A stretch of 36,855 bases of DNA, taken from positions 1 through 36,855 of IMG/VR virus record IMGVR_UViG_3300000053_000003; one strand, 5' to 3'. Position 1 is the stretch's first letter. Each line of letters starts with the position of its first letter. A program made the position numbers and the translations under genes. Of this stretch, positions 1,748 to 30,312 are shown piece by piece. The notes beneath the pieces were generated by a model. It was not told the DNA's origin. It did no database searches and worked only from the letters and a program-made list of their open reading frames with translations. The stretch is from a virus.

Positions 1748-2256
1748 CGCATCACCTCACGAACTGCAGCGGCGTAGTTCCGGCCCCACTTGGCGCGGAG
1801 CTCTGCGCGCTGCTCGGCAGTGCCGCGATCATATGCGCCAGGGCGCCACGTCTTCAGGTACAACCGCCAGCCTCCTTCCACGTCATCCTCGCTCGGCAGG
1901 CGGCCCGGATCGCTCCACAGCAGCAGGCGAGCCAGCCCAGCGGCGAGCACGTCGTCATGCTCAATAGCGTTCCAGATCGATCGATTGTCCGGCGCAACGC
2001 CGCGGGCCCGGTACAGCGCTGCGGCATAGTCTTCGGTCGCCTCATGGGTACGAACTCCGGCCACCATCCCGCCGCCGAGCTCACCCTGCCAGAATGACCG
2101 GGCCGGGCCGTTGCCCATCTGGCGACGGTGGACGAATCGGCTTTCCTGCAGGCCGATAGCCAACAGCATGATCTCAGCCTCTCGGCTCGACATTCGCGCA
2201 GGCAGCAGCGCGAGAGCGGGCGCTATGGCTCGCTCCCGTATTTCAGAGAGGGTCAT
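1744..2256 (-). CDS. Endolysin, lytic transglycosylase (SLT)-like
   Basis: Motif LLAIGLQESRF with the catalytic-type Glu-Ser. 170 aa. Located directly upstream of Rz/Rz1. Confidence 0.7.
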   Translation of the reverse strand: MTLSEIRERAIAPALALLPARMSSREAEIMLLAIGLQESRFVHRRQMGNGPARSFWQGELGGGMVAGVRTHEATEDYAAALYRARGVAPDNRSIWNAIEHDDVLAAGLARLLLWSDPGRLPSEDDVEGGWRLYLKTWRPGAYDRGTAEQRAELRAKWGRNYAAAVREVMR

Positions 2257-2274
2257 GGGAAATCCTTGGGCAAT

Positions 2275-2296
2275 AAAAAACCCCGCATTGGCGGGG
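2275..2296 (-). terminator. Rho-independent terminator after the acyltransferase moron
   Basis: On the minus strand: CCCCGC-caat-GCGGGG followed by TTTTTT. Sits between the acyltransferase stop (2315) and the endolysin start (2256). Confidence 0.75.
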
Positions 2297-2314
2297 CTGG
2301 TTTAGCTCTTCAGG

Positions 2315-3406
2315 TCATGGGCTTGCATGCGCAGCAGGTTCTCGTCTGCCGCCCCATGAGCGGCCCAAGCGGATGCCTGGCAGCTCGACGTATTTGTAGC
2401 TGAGCCAGGAGACTATAAGGGTCACGACAACACTTATAAGCACTACCCCTAAAGGATGCAGCCCAGTGCCGTGCACCAACCAGCTAACTACAGTCCTAAC
2501 AATCGGATGAAGCAGATAAAGGGAATAGGATATTAAGCCTAGGAGCGACAGGATTCTTCCAGGTAGAGAGTTAGATGCCCAATTTATTTGATAAACGCAG
2601 AACACCAGTATAAGAATCGCGCTACTGAGGTAGACGCGGTTCCATCCTTCAACGAGCTCTCCTCGCTCGCCTACCGAAGCGAGCGATAGCATGGCTATAG
2701 CTGCGGCTGCCGCGGCAATAAGCCAAGACCTGCCTAATTGCCGGGGCGCGCTCGTTAGACCGATAACCACACCCACCACAAAGAACAGCAGCTGGTTGGG
2801 ATTGCTGATGTAAAGGTTCCACGCATCCTGGCGTGACGCGCCGGCCATCGGTACATACCAAAAGCCCCACATCGCGAACAGAGTAAGCGAGACGGCGACA
2901 GCTACTAACATCAATCTTTTTGACTTCAAGGCCATCCAGAAAATTGCTGGAAAGCAGAGATAGAAGAAGACTTCGTTTCCGATCGACCACCCCCCTGTTA
3001 CGAGTGATTTGGAGGGGCCGAATAGGGAGAAAGCCAGCGTGTAATTTGCGACTAGATCGAACCAAGAAATTGACCGCGTGATCTCCAGAGACTGTTTGGT
3101 TAGCGCAACTGACGCAATGGTCAGGGTGATCGCCACCCAGTACAGCGGCGCAATTCTGAAGAATCGGCGCTTCAGGAAGTTGCCAATATCTGCCTTTGAG
3201 GCCATACGACCCTTATAGGCAATCGCAAGGCTGATCCCGCTGATCGCAAAAAAGGCCGACACACCATAGTAACCAAGGACACTCAACAGGCTATCAGGGG
3301 CCATCCAGCCGGAGAAAGACCAAGCGGTATAGTGATAGATCATGATGACTACGGCTAATACGCCGCGAAAATGATCTAGTGAATCGACCCTGGTTCCAGG
3401 CTGCAT
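2315..3406 (-). CDS. Acyltransferase family 3 membrane protein (OafA/Oac-like O-acetyltransferase), a lysogenic-conversion moron
   Basis: N-terminal LDHFRGVLAVVIMIYHY motif and about 10 hydrophobic segments across 363 aa. Visibly more AT-rich than the flanking genes. Confidence 0.8.
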   Translation of the reverse strand: MQPGTRVDSLDHFRGVLAVVIMIYHYTAWSFSGWMAPDSLLSVLGYYGVSAFFAISGISLAIAYKGRMASKADIGNFLKRRFFRIAPLYWVAITLTIASVALTKQSLEITRSISWFDLVANYTLAFSLFGPSKSLVTGGWSIGNEVFFYLCFPAIFWMALKSKRLMLVAVAVSLTLFAMWGFWYVPMAGASRQDAWNLYISNPNQLLFFVVGVVIGLTSAPRQLGRSWLIAAAAAAIAMLSLASVGERGELVEGWNRVYLSSAILILVFCVYQINWASNSLPGRILSLLGLISYSLYLLHPIVRTVVSWLVHGTGLHPLGVVLISVVVTLIVSWLSYKYVELPGIRLGRSWGGRREPAAHASP

Positions 3407-3447
3407 CTTAGAACTCCGTTACACCGCGCCTAGAATGGCAAGGCCTG

Positions 3448-3453
3448 ATTATA
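3448..3453 (-). promoter_or_regulatory. Candidate -10 box (TATAAT) for the acyltransferase moron
   Basis: Perfect TATAAT on the minus strand about 42 nt upstream of the ATG at 3406, overlapping the stop codon of the upstream gene. No convincing -35 found. Confidence 0.3.
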
Positions 3454-3853
3454 ACGGAGATGCGCCGCGAGAACCGCTAGCCGGCCAGGGATGCTCAGCC
3501 TGTATAGCCGCGTATCGAATCTTGCCGCGCTCTACAATTTCCTCCCACCCCGATTCACCCATTGACTGCATTCGTAGGGCTTCAGCGAAATATCGATCCG
3601 ACCCATGAAGCGGGTCCGCGTAGGCAAGCAAACGCGCCGCTTCTACCTGCCCTTCTGTTGGCGGCCCGTTCTCTGCTTGATCGACCAGCATCGGAAGACC
3701 GTGCTCGTCATGGACTCTTGTTTTTCCGAAAGATGGTGCGGCAATGACCTCCTCGAATCTCTGTTGCGAAATTTGGACGGCATCGGATGGAATATCGGAA
3801 TGCACCCCGGGAATGTAAGTACATCCTGTGGATTGGCTATAAAGTCGCGTCAT
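3449..3853 (-). CDS. Tail fibre assembly chaperone (Tfa/gpG-like)
   Basis: The pattern IPSDAVQISQQRFEEV...GKTRVHDEHGLPMLVD is typical of Tfa proteins. Located immediately downstream of the tail fibre gene. Confidence 0.7.
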   Translation of the reverse strand: MTRLYSQSTGCTYIPGVHSDIPSDAVQISQQRFEEVIAAPSFGKTRVHDEHGLPMLVDQAENGPPTEGQVEAARLLAYADPLHGSDRYFAEALRMQSMGESGWEEIVERGKIRYAAIQAEHPWPASGSRGASPL

Positions 3854-3867
3854 AATTCCCTCCCCGG

Positions 3868-4503
3868 TTAGTGTCCGATTGCTAGGTAAGCGAACGATCC
3901 GGCAGCGTAAAATGAGCTGCCCTGCGCTGAATAGAGCGTGAATCCTGTGGCTGTCTTCTGCGCGCCTAAAGTGGCTACTGTTGCGCTGGACGATGCGTCA
4001 TCTGTCAGTTGAAGCGTCAAGCAAGCCGTCGGAAAGGCGATTGGAAACGTAAAGGTTTGGCCTGATGTCGAGCCGCTGGCGCTTCCCCACTGTATGACGA
4101 GCCCACCTAGCCAAGACGGGAAAACGATATATCCGTTTGCTGTCAGGCTCGCCGAGAACCCCCACCGCAACTTCCGCGGCGTTACCGCTACGTCATCCAG
4201 CACGCCCGCGTCGACCTCGGCCTGCGTGCCAATGCGCAACGCGCCGCGCACCGACTCGGTAGCCTTCGCGACGACCGAGCGCACCACATTTAGCGCAATG
4301 GTCAGAATAGACGCGCGAATCTGGCCGTTGTCGGCTTCGTCGGGTTCTACGCCCGCTTCGGCCAGCACACCTAGCAGCTCGTCAGTAACGGCATTGCCCC
4401 AGCCGGCCGGAATCAGCGAGCCAGGGGTTCCGGTTACTTGGTCTTCGTCGACGAACTTTCCGTCGACCAGGCCCACGCCTGGCACACTCTTCGGGTAATC
4501 CAT
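3868..4503 (-). CDS. Tail fibre protein (short)
   Basis: Conserved N-terminus ([42 protein letters not shown]) and a Ser/Thr/Gly-rich beta C-terminal domain. Follows the baseplate genes. Confidence 0.75.
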
Positions 4504-24334: not shown

Positions 24335-27055
24335 TCATGCTGCCTTCCCCTTCACATGATCCCAGCCATCCACGTCCCAGCCCGCTTCCCGCGCCTTCGC
24401 ACGCCAATCCTTCACCATCTGGCCGAGCGCAGCGCTCGTCAGAGATGGGGGCAGGGAAGAGTTCGGATCGTCAGGGATGAAGAACGCGCCAAAGCGCCGT
24501 GAGTTGCCATCCGTCCAGGGGATCGGTCGTGCCGTCTTCTCCACCTCGGAACTGATGAACAGGCTGAACTTCGTCTGGCTCATCGCGTGTTCACGGTTGC
24601 GCTGGCACCACTCGAGGAACAGCGAATAGAGGTCGCTCGACAGGCAGCCACCCCACAGCCCGCGCCCCAGCTCCTGCGTACGCCACTGGTGCAGAAAGGT
24701 CTGCCAGCCGGCCCGGCTCAACGCCACCAGGCGCTGCCGTGCATCGGTATGCGGCGGCCGCGTCCGCTCGTTGAAGTCGCCCAAGTCGACCGCCAGCAGC
24801 CACGCATACAGCGCCGCCACACCACCATTGGCCAGCTCGCGCCCGATCGCCTGCTGCCGCTCCGGCGGCAACGTCTCCTGTGGCCACATCACCAGCAGCC
24901 GGCGGTCACTGTCACTGATCGGCCACGGCAGGATCTCGTTAGAGAGGAACACCGCATTCATATGGTTGGCTTCCTCCCAACCATTGATGAACTTCGACTC
25001 CATCCGCACCGTCTTGCCGGTGATCAGATGCTTGATCTTGCCCACCTGGTTGTAACGCTGGTCGCGGCTGACCACTTCCTCGAACACCGCCCACAGCTTC
25101 CGGCTCTGCCACGCGTTGAAGTTCGATTCCAGCTGCGTCTGCCCCACCGTCGCCGCGTACTGCCCATACAGAGCCCCCATCGTGTCCGCGAAGAACAGGC
25201 TCTTACCCGAACCCTCCATCACCGAATGCATCAGCACAGCGGTGTCCAGCTTCGCGCCCGGGTGCTGCAGCGGAAAGGCCAGCCACTTCGTCAGCCAGTC
25301 CAGCGCCTTGCCGTCGTGGTTACAGAGAAACGAGATCAGCCAGCGCAGGTTCTCGCACGCCGCATCATCACGCACCGGCTCCAGCGGCAGCCCCTCGAAC
25401 GTGTTGATGTACGTCGCCGGGTCCTTCGTCATCGTCGGGTCGAACACGATGTGGTCCACGTCCACCGTGCGGCGCTCGGCACTGTTGAGCCACAGCGCAT
25501 AGGCATCGCCCAGCGCCATCTTCACCGCGCCTTCCGGGATGCGCCGCTTCTTCTCGCGGTCCCACACATCCTTTGTCCCGTCGATGTACACATAGCGCTC
25601 GGTCGGCGGCATGCCCAGCGCACCGGCCTTCTTGCCCGCCATGCGCCGCGCCTGCTCGATCTCGCGCACCGCATCGGCGCCGATCAGCTTCTTGTTCGTG
25701 TCATCCAGCCAGGTCTTCGCCAGCGGCTTGCCCACCAGCGCCTCGAAGGCGGTCTTCTTCATCGCCACCTTCTTATCCTGGTCCCATACCTGCGTCGTTC
25801 CTTCAACCAGCGCAAACCGCCGCAGTACCTGTTCGGGCGTGAAGCCCGCCCCCTGCCCCCCGGTGTCGGAGGAGCCGGCCGGCGCAGCGGCTTCGGCAGC
25901 GGATGGGGCCGGGGAAGGCTTGCCAGCAGCAACAGCCGCATCGAGCTGCTGCTCGACCACCTCCAGCCCCCACGCCACATGCACATCGTTCCAGTCCTGC
26001 CCCGCCTCGCCTTCGGCCGGCAGCATCGGGAAGGCAGCAATGCCACCCACCTCACCCGCCGCCGCTTCCGCCTTCTTCCGGCCAGGGTTGCCCGGCTTCG
26101 TCGGGTCATCGTCACCGGCCACTACCAGCAGGGCATCCGGGCATTGCGCCGCCAGGTCACGCGCCACCGCCGGCATGTTGCCGGAGTCCAGCGCCATCGC
26201 CACCGGCCAGCCCTTCGCCATGTGCACACTGGCAGCCGTCGCATAGCCTTCGGCCTCGCCGATTACCGCCGCCCCGTCCAGGTCACCCAGCACATGCCGG
26301 CAACCCGCCTTGCGCCCGTACTTCGGGAACAGCTTCGTGCCCTGCTCATTGATCGCCTGCAGGCTCCACAGCTTCCCCGCCGCATCGCGCAGCGGAATGG
26401 CAATGCTGCCCTTCTTGAACATCAGAAAGCTGATCGAATCCGGCCGCGGCTTCGGCAGGTTGGCGAAGAACTCGCGCGTCTCACTGCCCACCCACACATC
26501 GCAGCGCTGCCGCTCGTCATCGATGGAAAGCACCACGGTGTAATGGAAGTAGCCAACGCCAAAAGCCCCAACCTGCTTGCGTTCCAGGTAGGGGCTTTCG
26601 CCTTGCGGCTTGCAGTGCTTCGTCCAGATCAGCTCACACGCGCTGGCCACCGCCTCACGCATAACCGAGGCCCTGGCTTCGTCCGCTTCGATCTCAGCCT
26701 GCCGCACCGCCCGCCGGGCTTCCGCCTCGGCATTCAGCCGTCGTTTCTCCTCGGCAGTGATCGGCTCCCGGCGCGGCCGCCAGCCGTTGTCTTTGGCCAG
26801 CTTGATCACCGTGCCCATGCCCGTGCCGGCCTTGCGGAAGCTCCGCCAAACCGTCTTCGCATCGCCCGCCTTATACCCAGCGCCCGTCGCGCTCCAAGTA
26901 TCCCAGGCGTCGAAGCCGGCACTGGCGAACTCCGCCTTGATGCCCATGCCCACCTGCAACCAGGTGTCGCGGTCATCGGCGGGGATGTACTGCAGCAGCT
27001 CGGTCAGGTCGGCCAACGTCAGCGGTACGCGCTCAACCACGCCGCACCCCCGCAT
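24335..27055 (-). CDS. Bifunctional primase-helicase (PriCT-2 N-domain, Toprim, D5/P4-alpha-type SF3 helicase)
   Basis: N-terminal WLQVGMGIKAEF..FDAWDTWS..YKAGDAKTVWRSF resembles PriCT-2. VVAGDDDP..GNPGRKKA is Toprim-like. GSGKS is a Walker A motif, with a D5-like context. 906 aa. Confidence 0.8.
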   Translation of the reverse strand: MRGCGVVERVPLTLADLTELLQYIPADDRDTWLQVGMGIKAEFASAGFDAWDTWSATGAGYKAGDAKTVWRSFRKAGTGMGTVIKLAKDNGWRPRREPITAEEKRRLNAEAEARRAVRQAEIEADEARASVMREAVASACELIWTKHCKPQGESPYLERKQVGAFGVGYFHYTVVLSIDDERQRCDVWVGSETREFFANLPKPRPDSISFLMFKKGSIAIPLRDAAGKLWSLQAINEQGTKLFPKYGRKAGCRHVLGDLDGAAVIGEAEGYATAASVHMAKGWPVAMALDSGNMPAVARDLAAQCPDALLVVAGDDDPTKPGNPGRKKAEAAAGEVGGIAAFPMLPAEGEAGQDWNDVHVAWGLEVVEQQLDAAVAAGKPSPAPSAAEAAAPAGSSDTGGQGAGFTPEQVLRRFALVEGTTQVWDQDKKVAMKKTAFEALVGKPLAKTWLDDTNKKLIGADAVREIEQARRMAGKKAGALGMPPTERYVYIDGTKDVWDREKKRRIPEGAVKMALGDAYALWLNSAERRTVDVDHIVFDPTMTKDPATYINTFEGLPLEPVRDDAACENLRWLISFLCNHDGKALDWLTKWLAFPLQHPGAKLDTAVLMHSVMEGSGKSLFFADTMGALYGQYAATVGQTQLESNFNAWQSRKLWAVFEEVVSRDQRYNQVGKIKHLITGKTVRMESKFINGWEEANHMNAVFLSNEILPWPISDSDRRLLVMWPQETLPPERQQAIGRELANGGVAALYAWLLAVDLGDFNERTRPPHTDARQRLVALSRAGWQTFLHQWRTQELGRGLWGGCLSSDLYSLFLEWCQRNREHAMSQTKFSLFISSEVEKTARPIPWTDGNSRRFGAFFIPDDPNSSLPPSLTSAALGQMVKDWRAKAREAGWDVDGWDHVKGKAA

Positions 27056-27254
27056 TCCGCTTGTCCTCGATGCCCTGGCACTCGGTGCACATCCGGCACC
27101 CCTTCACCGCATCGCGCCGGGCCTGCGGAATCTCGCCGCCGCACCCTTCGCACTCGGTCAGGCTCTCACCCTGGTACTGCACGCGGCTTGCGATAAGGCG
27201 CTGCAGCTCCTCGTCCTGCTCCCGCTGGGCACGTTCGATCAGATGCTCATCCAT
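27033..27254 (-). CDS. TraR/DksA-family C4 zinc-finger protein
   Basis: Start set at the ATG at 27254 (ATGGATGA overlap with the upstream stop). Motif CEGCGGEIPQARRDAVKGCRMCTECQ. Confidence 0.75.
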   Translation of the reverse strand: MDEHLIERAQREQDEELQRLIASRVQYQGESLTECEGCGGEIPQARRDAVKGCRMCTECQGIEDKRNAGVRRG

Positions 27255-28075: not shown

Positions 28076-28333
28076 TTATGCGCGGCGCTCGGCTTGGCGC
28101 CGCTCTCCGCGCCTGCGCTCCGTCTGGCGGCGGTCAGCTTCAAAGCGAGCGCCGCCACTCTTCTCGGCATAGAGCTTTTCCAGTTCCTTGCCGATGCAGT
28201 AACGGAGTTCAGCGCCATTCAGCGCCCGAAAGACGGTTGGCTGAGTAACGCCAATAGCATCAGCGATGCCCTGCTGGGTCATCCCGGCTTCGATAAGCGT
28301 TTTCAGCATTTCAGTGATCGAGGGAGTAGTCAT
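28076..28333 (-). CDS. Cro-like HTH protein with an arginine-rich C-terminal tail
   Basis: Start set at the ATG at 28333. HTH segment MTQQGIADAIGVTQPTVFRALNG. C-terminus RFEADRRQTERRRGERRQAERRA. Divergent from the repressor gene. Confidence 0.7.
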   Translation of the reverse strand: MTTPSITEMLKTLIEAGMTQQGIADAIGVTQPTVFRALNGAELRYCIGKELEKLYAEKSGGARFEADRRQTERRRGERRQAERRA

Positions 28334-28433
28334 GACAAAGGAATGTATCCGGCTACGCATTGAGCAAGATAATACGCATCGGAATTGTCAGCCGCAATAC
28401 GCTTTGCATAATTCGCAAAGGAATAATTTCGGC
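28334..28433. promoter_or_regulatory. Divergent immunity switch (back-to-back promoters plus repeated operator-like motif)
   Basis: Minus strand: TTGCGG (28392-28397), 17-nt spacer, TATTAT (28369-28374). Plus strand: TTGTCA (28385-28390), 15-nt spacer, CATAAT (28406-28411). TACGCAT occurs at 28354 and 28373, and TACGCT at 28398. Confidence 0.5.
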
Positions 28434-29096
28434 ATGGCTATTTCGATCGGTCACATCGCCGCGATGCTGGCGGCAAGGCGCGAAAAGCTGGGCTGGAGCG
28501 AGACAGAGCTGGCCAAGAGAGCCGGCCTTAACCAATCCACCGTGCACCGCATCCTCAAGGGTGAGTTCCAGAACCCGCAGATCAATTACATCGAGCGCCT
28601 CACTCGCGCCCTTGGGTTGGACATGGCCGAAGTACTCGGCCTCCGCCAGCCCGATCCGCAAACCCTAGACTCGACCTTGGGACCTGGGCCCGCCTTGCAT
28701 CAACGCGTACCTCTGATTTCATGGGTGCGCGCCGGAGATTTATGCGAGGCGATAGATTTGTTTGAACCTGGCTTTGCCGATGACTGGCTGGACTGCCCTT
28801 TCCCCCATAGCTCGTCTGCCTTCTGCCTAGAAGTGAGAGGGCTAAGCATGTCGCCAGAGTACCGGGCAGGGGAAATCATACTAGTCGAGCCAGACATTCA
28901 GGCGATGCACAACGATGACGTGGTGGTGAGAACACCTGAAGGGCAGGTCACCTTCAAACGGCTGCAGAAAACGGAAGACGGCGTCTTTCTGCTGGCCCTG
29001 AATCCAGAGTTTCCGAACCGTATCATTCACATGCCCGCCGATACAGCGGTCTGTGGCGTAGTGACTGGCTCGTGGATTAAACGAAAAAGGCGGTGA
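28434..29096 (+). CDS. CI/LexA-like repressor (XRE HTH plus S24 self-cleaving peptidase domain)
   Basis: Start set at the ATG at 28434. HTH segment WSETELAKRAGLNQSTVHRILKG. Ala-Gly site in WVRAGD. Ser motif GLSMSPEY. Lys motif TFKRL. Confidence 0.85.
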   Translation: MAISIGHIAAMLAARREKLGWSETELAKRAGLNQSTVHRILKGEFQNPQINYIERLTRALGLDMAEVLGLRQPDPQTLDSTLGPGPALHQRVPLISWVRAGDLCEAIDLFEPGFADDWLDCPFPHSSSAFCLEVRGLSMSPEYRAGEIILVEPDIQAMHNDDVVVRTPEGQVTFKRLQKTEDGVFLLALNPEFPNRIIHMPADTAVCGVVTGSWIKRKRR

Positions 29097-29132
29097 ACGC
29101 CGAGTTACACCTATTTAAGCGCAGGAGCGCAC

Positions 29133-29447
29133 ATGGCTGAGCAAACAGAAGACCTAGACGACACTGTTACCTTTGATGAACTGGTCCGCTTCTTCAAAAC
29201 GGTATCGCCCGAGGTAAAGTGCATGTCCTGTGGTGATAGTCGCTGGACGGTCATGCTGGAAGATGACGAGGTTAAAGTTTCAGAGGCATCACTTGGAAAA
29301 GAAGGATCTTTTTTGAAGTATTTCCCTGTCTTTCTCACGGTTTGCCACACCTGTGGCTATGTCAAAGCCCACCACGCAACTGTAATCAGGGCATGGCTGT
29401 TGGAGAATCCAAAACCCGATCTGAAGCAGGATGGCGAGAGTGAGTAG
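29133..29447 (+). CDS. Small zinc-ribbon-like protein of unknown function (repressor-linked cassette, gene 1)
   Basis: AGGAG RBS. 104 aa with CMSCGD and CHTCGY pairs. AT-richer than its surroundings. No terminator between cI and this gene. Confidence 0.6.
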   Translation: MAEQTEDLDDTVTFDELVRFFKTVSPEVKCMSCGDSRWTVMLEDDEVKVSEASLGKEGSFLKYFPVFLTVCHTCGYVKAHHATVIRAWLLENPKPDLKQDGESE

Positions 29448-29979
29448 CTATACCCCCGAGACCATGCGGGAACGGCTTAGCAGCTGCACCCCAATCTATG
29501 AACGCAGTCTTCGCGCGCCTGTCGAACGTGACAATCATGAACATATCAGCGACCCTAGACAGATGAATGACATCACTCGATACGAGCTGGACGCGAAGTT
29601 AGAAACCATCGAAGCAAGGATGGACGGCCGCGTCGCGTCTATTGAGGCGAAGATCGACTCGTTTCTCTCAGCCCAGGCTGAGCGTGACAAACGAGTTGAC
29701 CTCGATATTGCCAGAATGGCTGAGTCGCAGGCCGGAATCCGGGCGGACATCAAGTCGATGAAGACGACCACGATTGTCACGGCGATCACAGCAGTCCTTG
29801 CGATTGTATTCGGCATAGCGACGTTTAACGCTACCTTAACCTCCAACATGATCTCCGCCTTCCAAATGGGCAAGGGCGAACGAGTTGAAGCGCCGGTCCA
29901 GCAAAGCGTGCCCTCAGTCTCTCCGCCGCCACCCGTGCCCGCTACAACCACACAAGAACAAGCCAAACCCCGCAATTAG
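29431..29979 (+). CDS. Coiled-coil protein with a single C-proximal TM helix and a Pro-rich tail (cassette gene 2)
   Basis: ELDAKLETIEARMDGRVASIEAKIDSF..., then TM helix TTIVTAITAVLAIVFGIATF, then SPPPPVPA. The true start is uncertain (29431, 29464 or 29563). Confidence 0.55.
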   Translation: MARVSSYTPETMRERLSSCTPIYERSLRAPVERDNHEHISDPRQMNDITRYELDAKLETIEARMDGRVASIEAKIDSFLSAQAERDKRVDLDIARMAESQAGIRADIKSMKTTTIVTAITAVLAIVFGIATFNATLTSNMISAFQMGKGERVEAPVQQSVPSVSPPPPVPATTTQEQAKPRN

Positions 29980-29990
29980 CGGGGTTTTTT
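29965..29990 (+). terminator. Rho-independent terminator closing the cI-cassette transcription unit
   Basis: CCCCGC-aatta-GCGGGG followed by TTTTTT. The stop codon lies in the loop. Confidence 0.8.
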
Positions 29991-30055
29991 CCACGTGCAT
30001 CAGTCGGCGCGACCCAGTAATTAGCCAGCCACGCATTAAATTATCCCGATACGTA

Positions 30056-30084
30056 TTGACTGTATAAATTCGTTCGCGGATTAT
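30056..30084 (+). promoter_or_regulatory. Candidate early-left (PL-like) sigma70 promoter
   Basis: TTGACT, 17-nt spacer, GATTAT, about 34 nt before the ATG at 30118. The operator-like ACGCATT (30031) and palindrome ATACGTAT (30050) lie next to the -35. Confidence 0.45.
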
Positions 30085-30117
30085 TGTCGTGTACCCACTT
30101 ACCACGGGATCGCGACA

Positions 30118-30312
30118 ATGGACACAGCACAGCACTGCAGCACCCGCTGCCCGGTCTTTCTGCACCCGGCAGCGGCATCCAACCCCTTCACCGTACGCCG
30201 CATCGAACGTGAAACCGGCCTGACCGCTCACGTCACCCTGCGCGCCGCACAACTCAAGCGCCACACCCTCCCCGCCTTCGAGGACTTCGGTCCGTTCGGT
30301 GGCGCAGCATGA
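30118..30312 (+). CDS. Hypothetical protein
   Basis: First ORF after the candidate promoter. ATGA coupling to the next ORF. Confidence 0.4.
   Translation: MDTAQHCSTRCPVFLHPAAASNPFTVRRIERETGLTAHVTLRAAQLKRHTLPAFEDFGPFGGAA

Follow-up and report, generated by a model that had tools for sequence, protein, structure and literature searches.

A zinc-ribbon and tail-anchored coiled-coil gene pair downstream of a CI-like repressor: a candidate exclusion module of Pseudomonas-type prophages

The gene pair downstream of the repressor

We analyzed a 36,855-nucleotide stretch of viral DNA (IMG/VR record IMGVR_UViG_3300000053_000003, positions 1 to 36,855; hereafter the window), the whole of which is a lambdoid prophage from a Pseudomonas/Stutzerimonas-type host of high GC content (63.5% guanine plus cytosine). 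The subject of this study is a pair of genes lying directly 3' of the gene for a CI-like repressor. Gene 1 (29133-29447) encodes a 104-residue predicted zinc-ribbon protein, referred to here as ZnR, and gene 2 (29431-29979) encodes a 182-residue, predicted tail-anchored coiled-coil inner-membrane protein, referred to as G2. The two genes overlap by 17 nt and, together with the repressor gene (cI, 28434-29096), form a unit on one strand (+) with no internal terminator. An identical copy of gene 2 was found on a 32-kb IMG/VR viral contig (L053). The pair is a module of accessory ("moron") character that lies within the immunity region of the prophage.

The spacer between cI and gene 1 (29097-29132, +) is 36 nt long and carries an AGGAG Shine-Dalgarno sequence at 29123-29127. 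Terminator and promoter scans of the + strand of this spacer were negative; only a weak hairpin that includes the Shine-Dalgarno sequence and is not followed by a T-run was present. Because no terminator or promoter separates cI from gene 1, and because genes 1 and 2 overlap, co-expression with cI is expected, and in a lysogen the pair would be co-transcribed with the repressor from a PRM-like promoter. The unit is closed by an intrinsic terminator at 29965-29990 (+ strand; AAACCCCGC-aatta-GCGGGGTTT and further T residues), in which a 9-bp stem has a folding free energy of -15.6 kcal/mol. The stop codon of gene 2 lies inside this hairpin, and the terminator scan detected the same stem on the - strand as well. 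An antisense open reading frame (ORF) at 29535-29975 and the other ORFs listed at the locus were considered and set aside as spurious frames, of the kind that a six-frame listing produces where DNA is GC-rich.

The overall order is a leftward cro-like gene, an OR-like region, rightward cI, gene 1, gene 2 and terminator, and then an OL/PL-like region that leads into the early-left operon. An earlier note on this DNA had described two overlapping same-strand ORFs 3' of a CI-like repressor, uninterrupted by a terminator and ended by a strong one, in a RexAB-type position. Its coordinates were exact, the terminator has both the stable hairpin and the T-run on the + strand, and the cassette does fall within the immunity region, flanked by OR-like and OL-like repeats. 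The protein features that it had listed were recovered too, namely two CxxC pairs in gene 1 and a heptad-like helix, one transmembrane helix and a Pro-rich tail in gene 2.

Two conserved families and their pairing

ZnR is acidic (pI 4.7) and carries its CxxC pairs at C30/C33 (CMSC) and C71/C74 (CHTC). A word-indexed homologue search was nearly blind to this protein (one match, or three with a profile), and it took an exhaustive search of 1.84 billion representatives with HMMER to reveal the family, which comprised 596 clusters at E<=1e-3, nearly all of 85-125 aa. In a 77-sequence alignment, C30, C33, C71, and C74 were invariant, and F20, W38, and W88 were nearly so. ZnR also matched phrog_4293, a family of unknown function (E 7.6e-9). 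The AlphaFold2 model built from the same alignment (predicted local distance difference test score, pLDDT, 85.6; predicted template modelling score 0.73) contains a helix at residues 14-24, a beta-sheet zinc ribbon at 38-81, and a second helix at 82-91. With two family-wide CxxC knuckles placed on a beta-hairpin sheet, the model has the fold of a zinc ribbon, and the four cysteines form a predicted zinc site.

Searches of Pfam, NCBIfam, and PDB sequences with the protein and with its family profile returned only zinc-finger noise for ZnR, and PADLOC-DB v2.0.0 returned only a noise match to Cas10 (E 0.026, 11 bits). None of 217 Foldseek matches of the model against the PDB reached E<=0.001. The top matches were the zinc ribbons of NrdR, TFIIS/Rpb9, Rpp21, and MqsA, all of them weak (E>=0.47, template modelling score <=0.30). 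Against BFVD, one good match was obtained, to an unnamed 87-aa viral protein (A0A0H5ARH7; template modelling scores 0.62/0.73). ZnR resembles the zinc-ribbon domains of NrdR (N-terminal), TFIIS/Rpb9 (C-terminal), RNase P Rpp21, and MqsA (N-terminal) in its two CxxC knuckles and beta-hairpin sheet, but differs from them in having its own flanking helices (14-24 and 82-91), an invariant Trp38, and a stand-alone family of 90-120 aa.

For G2, 218 homologues were collected, chiefly from Pseudomonas, and every one of them is annotated as hypothetical. The protein opens with a variable N-extension (residues 1-44; 29431-29562, +), which is disordered and carries the motif ETMRERLSSCT, common to a subset of the ZnR-linked homologues. 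The conserved cytoplasmic coiled coil (29563-29766, +) begins at the invariant Met45 (MNDITRYELDAKLETIEARMD...) and follows the consensus MNDITRxELxAKLExIEARMD... with canonical 3-4 hydrophobic spacing; read from the sequence of G2, the heptad positions are L53-L57-I60-M64-V68-I71-I75-F78. Invariant columns of this part of the alignment are M45, R50, E52, E61, M64, F78, and Q82. Next comes a transmembrane helix rich in small residues (approximately residues 113-133, TTIVTAITAVLAIVFGIATF; 29767-29829, +), with conserved columns at T117, I125, V126, G128, and F132. It contains the single hydrophobic segment found in a Kyte-Doolittle scan of G2 (residues 114-132, maximum 2.32). The remainder (29830-29976, +) consists of a juxtamembrane motif, NATLTSNMISAFQMGK, and a Pro-rich low-complexity tail that is predicted to be periplasmic. 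In the homologues the motif after the helix is near-invariant (FNxxLTSNMxxAFQxG, with N133, L136, N139, M140, F144, Q145, and G147 invariant), and the tail of G2 has 8 Pro among its last 49 residues.

The AlphaFold model of G2 shows one unbroken helix over residues 50-149, with block-mean pLDDT of 92-97 over residues 51-100 and of 46-60 over the tail (151-182); segment 150-158 is below 50. A large charged N-terminal part combined with a C-terminal transmembrane helix suggests that G2 is tail-anchored with its N terminus inside the cell. G2 and its family profile gave only coiled-coil noise against Pfam, NCBIfam, and PDB sequences, and G2 had no match in PADLOC-DB v2.0.0. The earlier note had recognized no named defence family here, in line with the absence of any usable PADLOC match.

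We then surveyed the neighborhoods of the two families. The G2-anchored survey covered 103 loci (5 exact-protein look-ups, 40 GTDB genomes, and 58 IMG/VR loci), a partly redundant set drawn from Pseudomonas, Stutzerimonas, and Burkholderiales-type genomes and IMG/VR; Duganella, Cupriavidus, Chromobacterium, and Paenalcaligenes are also among the hosts. An S24 repressor gene lay within 3.5 kb upstream on the same strand in 72 of the 103 loci (approximately 70%), and a ZnR gene lay immediately upstream of G2 in 53. From the other side, all 21 IMG/VR loci anchored on ZnR had an overlapping downstream ORF of the G2 family, and four further ZnR cluster representatives led to five loci, each with an overlapping downstream gene for a coiled coil plus a transmembrane segment. 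Adjacency of the two genes recurred in more than 70 independent loci, and it exceeds chance, both families being conserved.

The start of gene 2 bears directly on this pairing. Met45 was invariant in all 32 aligned homologues, and stand-alone homologues start exactly there. The earlier note had allowed that the real start of gene 2 might turn the pair into unrelated genes. In the 45 unique ZnR-linked loci, the G2 frame was open from the ZnR stop codon to the conserved Met in all 45 (25-104 codons), compared with 6.3 expected from base composition, whereas the other two frames were open in 12 and 0 of these loci. These results indicate that the N-extension is translated, that the start near 29431 stands, and that the two genes are translationally coupled; the pairing thus survived. 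In addition, no Shine-Dalgarno sequence precedes ATG 29563 (Met45) in the window. On these grounds we rejected the view that gene 2 truly begins at Met45, a start that would leave the two genes uncoupled. By analogy with SieB/Esc or holin/antiholin, Met45 might nevertheless yield a shorter isoform.

Two single-chain fusions were found, one joining ZnR to a transmembrane segment with an xAFxxG motif (P0215) and one joining ZnR to a coiled coil (P0188). Locus L048 holds the pair most closely related to that of the window: its ZnR is 44% identical and the first 78 residues of its G2 are approximately 51% identical, and the membrane half is unrelated. Besides ZnR, at least seven other classes of small protein occur upstream of G2, and motifs in the N-extension follow the class of the partner: xxhKxR[LF]xxCT was confined to loci with ZnR, and GLPDxWAKNLxRL to loci with a partner class of 75 aa. 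Taken together, the comparisons present genes 1 and 2 as what is by all appearances a true functional pair, with obligate pairing. Several features are those of a type II-like toxin-antitoxin locus, in that a small acidic gene 1 product is encoded just ahead of, and overlapping by 17 nt, a gene with which it co-occurs in 21 of 21 loci as seen from the ZnR side.

Other accessory genes were noted beside the module in the surveyed loci, including an SNase-domain gene directly after G2 (L001, 8637-9146), a DUF5334 gene between cI and ZnR (L048, 1940-2420), a bAvd/RVT_1 gene pair such as diversity-generating retroelements carry (L003, 11235-12546), and a putAbiC gene near the module (L005, 8176-8806).

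The window cassette was absent from the deposited phage collection, in which gene 1 had no match and gene 2 one distant match, in the D3-like Pseudomonas aeruginosa phage vB_PaeS-D14O, where the pair follows cI. A search of the same collection with the D14O pair found D14O and vB_PaeS-D14P only. In D14P (L047, BK061589.1), the pair lies between tail genes I and J; the ZnR ORF (2295-2702, CPHC...CVKC) shares 8 nt with the annotated G2-like gene (2695-3387). The module therefore also occurs as a tail-region moron, and the public annotation omits its ZnR gene.

This location bears on a reading in which the module acts at the entry step. P22 SieA, HK97 gp15, and lactococcal Sie2009 are small inner-membrane entry blockers of prophages, encoded in lysogeny or tail moron slots; they act as single genes and are mostly anchored at the N terminus. 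G2 might similarly block DNA injection, or a receptor or conduit, as these proteins and T4 Imm do, although we regard such superinfection exclusion as unlikely. Under the same doubtful scheme the juxtamembrane motif and Pro-rich tail would be periplasmic, and ZnR would merely aid insertion or stability. It is consistent with this that the window pair sits in a lysogeny module, that the D14P pair occupies a classic place for exclusion genes, and that 12 of the 20 columns invariant in the subfamily fall in the transmembrane helix and FNxxLTSNMxxAFQxG, which together are its densest invariant stretch. However, what the subfamilies all have in common is the MNDITR signature of the cytoplasmic coiled coil, and it is the transmembrane and periplasmic half that is swapped between subfamilies. 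The periplasmic part is also short and disordered. Unlike the known blockers, G2 has a C-terminal anchor, is mostly cytoplasmic, and in prophage contexts nearly always has a coupled partner; one would not expect a simple blocker to have an obligate cytoplasmic partner that is coupled to it in translation and with which its N-extension co-varies.

Control regions, cargo slot and prophage setting

The repressor (28434-29096, +) combines a helix-turn-helix domain with an S24 autopeptidase (Pfam Peptidase_S24 3.1e-22, HTH_31 9e-12, phrog_4 1.6e-38) and shares 27% identity with lambda cI (E 5e-19). Its start is likely ATG 28434 and not the longest-ORF start at 28266. Divergent from it lies a cro-like helix-turn-helix regulator gene (28076-28333, -), whose product matched the phrog_6831 transcriptional regulators (E 2.9e-17) and scored 21.4 bits against HTH_3, under the 23-bit cutoff; homologous loci carry P22_Cro/YdaS genes at the same place. 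The two genes are separated by an OR-like divergent control region of 100 bp (28334-28433, GC 0.44), which includes the PRM-like promoter (TTGTCA-16-CATAAT, 28385-28412, +; promoter scan score 10/12) and an operator-like repeat, TATCCGGCTACGCATT, at 28346-28361. This repeat belongs to a 16-nt family, D1 (TAtCCnGnnACGyATT), of which there are three copies. The other two (30022-30037 and 30042-30057) lie in the OL/PL-like region (30022-30084, +), where they overlap a promoter-like site (TTGACT-17-GATTAT, 30056-30084). The D1 repeats thus flank the unit of cI, gene 1, and gene 2, with one copy on the OR-like side and two on the OL-like side, and from their position alone they are putative operators.

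Homology to the Pseudomonas stutzeri phages vB_PstS-pAN and PG1 begins abruptly at approximately 30086, right after the PL-like promoter, and from there the early-left region is 90-96% identical to both. An inverted repeat, I1 (ATTGTCGTGTACCC / GGGATCGCGACAAT, 30083-30119), sits exactly at the onset of this near-identity. In the early-left transcript, this repeat might fold into a conserved hairpin of the 5' leader, with a nut-like, terminator, or regulatory role.

The earlier note had proposed surveying whether the cassette is replaced by other genes at the same position in related prophages, and such replacement was indeed found. In vB_PstS-pAN, which has the same backbone, the repressor runs straight into the shared early-left region and the slot is empty. 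In PG1 (L112, OQ504958.1), the slot (2931-3954) holds two unrelated genes of 149 aa and 181 aa. Judging from these genomes, the cI-downstream slot is a variable cargo hot spot. The 181-aa PG1 protein is annotated as an NAD-dependent DNA ligase, and neither PG1 cargo protein matched Pfam at E<=1e-3; the two genes may be another accessory or defence pair.

Base composition was less informative about the history of the pair. The cassette had been described in the earlier note as AT-richer than the rest of the prophage and, on that basis, as suggestive of separate acquisition. The AT-richness is real: gene 1 has a GC content of 0.486, the lowest of any feature measured, compared with 0.635 for the window, and gene 2 stands at 0.556. 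The argument for separate acquisition is weakened and finds partial support at most, since cI (0.576), cro (0.597), and the operators are below the backbone as well, and the whole immunity region (28076-30085) has a GC content of 0.546. Composition therefore marks the entire immunity module as a mosaic unit, not the cassette as a separate one.

Elsewhere, the prophage codes for a CII-like protein, a DUF3310 protein, an integrase, and a 906-aa ORF (24335-27055, -) in the position where pAN and PG1 annotate primase genes. An 869-aa ORF (24587-27196, +), low in complexity and rich in Arg, Pro, Ala, His, and Gln, runs antisense to the 906-aa ORF and most likely reflects nothing more than six-frame ORF listing in high-GC DNA; in a GC-rich window, ORF length by itself does not prove a gene. 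A second AT-rich island lies within 2001-4000 (GC 0.54-0.56 compared with 0.635). It contains a gene for a 363-aa Acyl_transf_3 protein (2315-3406, -; Pfam 2.3e-29) and a neighboring 134-aa ORF (3449-3853) for which no Pfam match was found. Acyltransferases of the Acyl_transf_3 type are used by seroconverting prophages for O-antigen modification, and the gene at 2315-3406 is likely a second lysogenic-conversion or exclusion gene.

Proposed function and its alternatives

All readings combined, some form of phage exclusion is the probable role of the module. Among the specific forms, an abortive-infection module of Rex-like or toxin-antitoxin-like kind, expressed in the lysogen, is a serious possibility that falls somewhat short of being probable. 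Its products would be a small acidic cytoplasmic zinc-ribbon protein and an inner-membrane protein whose C-terminal helix tethers its coiled coil to the membrane. In the resting lysogen, ZnR would dock on the variable N-terminal part of G2 and hold it inactive, in the manner of an antitoxin or a sensor. Upon infection by a heterologous phage, ZnR would be displaced, titrated, or lost, and the freed G2 could oligomerize through its coiled coil and small-residue transmembrane helix and compromise the inner membrane. Such damage would abort the infection, by a logic like that of Rex but with unrelated proteins.

A broader form of this proposal, which we put forward tentatively, is that ZnR and G2 may constitute an undescribed, widespread two-component anti-phage system of Pseudomonas/Burkholderiales-type prophages, in which the N-extension of a tail-anchored effector docks interchangeable small partners that set the specificity of the trigger. 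The same tentative proposal would imply a plug-and-play sensor and effector design that is housed in immunity regions and occasionally in tail moron slots. Our literature search found no paper describing a ZnR-G2 pair.

The likeness to lambda RexAB is one of position and organization. Comparison with the lambda record showed that the order of the window (cro, OR, cI-ZnR-G2, terminator, OL/PL) mirrors that of lambda (cro, OR, cI-rexA-rexB, OL-PL, N), with a two-gene unit 3' of cI on the same strand and within the immunity region between OR and OL/PL. In both cases one protein is soluble and the other resides in the inner membrane, and the proposed logic, a cytoplasmic partner controlling a membrane effector, is shared. 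The proteins themselves differ. RexA is a 279-aa DNA clamp of the RexA fold, whereas gene 1 encodes a 104-aa zinc ribbon; RexB is a four-helix transmembrane bundle, whereas gene 2 encodes a long coiled coil with one C-terminal transmembrane helix. The Kyte-Doolittle scan that gave one segment in G2 flagged five 19-residue windows in RexB, a published four-helix transmembrane protein. BLASTP of gene 1 against RexA gave E 1.9, the ZnR profile did not match RexA, and the RexA structure (8TWQ) was not among the 50 Foldseek PDB matches listed for gene 1. Likewise, G2 had no BLASTP or hidden Markov model similarity to RexB. We would class the module among the accessory or exclusion cassettes that prophages carry linked to their repressor genes; it consists of two uncharacterized families and is RexAB-like by position and two-part logic, not by its proteins.

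Two-gene systems in comparable prophage settings are known. Prophage P1 of Pseudomonas putida carries a validated, membrane-damaging system of the RexAB type (PP_5643/PP_5644) 3' of a CI-like repressor (PMC12894663). In mycobacteriophage Sbash, the pair gp30 and gp31 is expressed during lysogeny; it is both necessary and sufficient for a specific defence, against phage Crossroads, and its proposed effect is a loss of membrane potential (PMC6426596). This two-gene "collusion" module is analogous to the window pair, but it belongs to a different host phylum, no relationship in sequence is expected, and its defence has been demonstrated, whereas that of the window pair is a proposal. The "overlapping exclusion genes" of Fc02 (PMC9936078) were also considered; they form a B3-like system that is unrelated to the pair and serves as an analogy only.

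Several observations weigh against an anti-phage role. Neither protein matched Pfam, NCBIfam, PADLOC, or the PDB, and neither showed similarity to lambda RexA, RexB, or SieB. In P. putida prophage P1, the two genes right after the repressor (PP_3897 and PP_3898, whose sequences were not compared with the window pair) were dispensable against two phage genera (PMC12894663). The conserved mass of G2 is mostly plain coiled coil, a structure that would suit many functions. Finally, G2 resembles lysis-cassette proteins in part, and at approximately 10 of the 40 genome loci a G2 core stands alone in a non-prophage chromosomal context. The last two points are the basis of two further readings.

In seven loci (L014, L015, L017, L020, L025, L044, and L045), a stand-alone G2 core starting at the conserved Met45 lies in an ordinary chromosomal context, which implies that the core may have a housekeeping role. 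At two of them (L014 and L015), it adjoins a radical-SAM-like ORF that is QueE-like as judged from its sequence. G2 could accordingly be a phage-borne version of a cellular tail-anchored protein with stress, ribosome, or envelope functions, making the module a factor of host physiology or lysogen fitness, a reading that we consider quite unlikely. The absence of any defence-family match fits it, as does the acyltransferase conversion gene of the same prophage. However, prophage versions always add the variable N-extension and the coupled partner gene, approximately 70% of the loci are repressor-linked, and the turnover of partners and shuffling of domains resemble the dynamics of an arms race and not those of housekeeping genes.

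The module could also regulate the life cycle of its own phage, with G2 acting as an XhlA-like lysis accessory, an anti-holin, or a membrane-tethered modulator of repressor cleavage or induction; we judge this very unlikely. The genes do adjoin cI, and XhlA (PF10779), phrog_689, and phrog_937, which are Bacillus prophage lysis-cassette proteins, share with G2 a short coiled coil followed by a C-terminal transmembrane helix, the architecture of XhlA-type holin-associated proteins. A minority of G2 homologues matched phrog_689, labeled holin (5 of 32 members, with a best E of 3e-6), and phrog_937, labeled hemolysin. Against PF10779, G2 scored 12.5 bits (E 0.17), far under the gathering threshold of 34.7 bits, and only 1 of 32 members matched at E<=0.1; the likeness to XhlA is therefore one of architecture, not of membership. 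Membership in XhlA or the holin-associated proteins was rejected on this score and on position, the module lying outside any lysis cassette (in the lysogeny module at approximately 70% of loci, and among tail genes in D14P). G2 differs further from XhlA in having no adjoining holin or endolysin gene, an extra N-extension, and a coupled partner gene. Moreover, since the fully sequenced vB_PstS-pAN lacks the module and PG1 has unrelated genes in its place, the module is dispensable for the phage cycle, which also argues against a regulator of that cycle.

If the proposed exclusion role is true, a new architecture, a tail-anchored coiled-coil effector with swappable small partners, would join the repressor-linked prophage defences represented by RexAB, SieB, BstA, and Sbash gp30/gp31, and a function would be assigned to two "hypothetical" families, one of 596 zinc-ribbon clusters and one of more than 200 G2 clusters. 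The occurrence of the pair in the records of the P. aeruginosa phages D14O and D14P bears on the host range of phages for therapy. Natural partner swaps and the shuffling of G2 domains provide material for separating specificity from effector function. Even if the pair is not defensive, the cI-downstream slot of these phages is a variable cargo locus worth mining. The module is not surprising in principle, yet it is a well-delimited, widespread, experimentally tractable, and unusually modular candidate.

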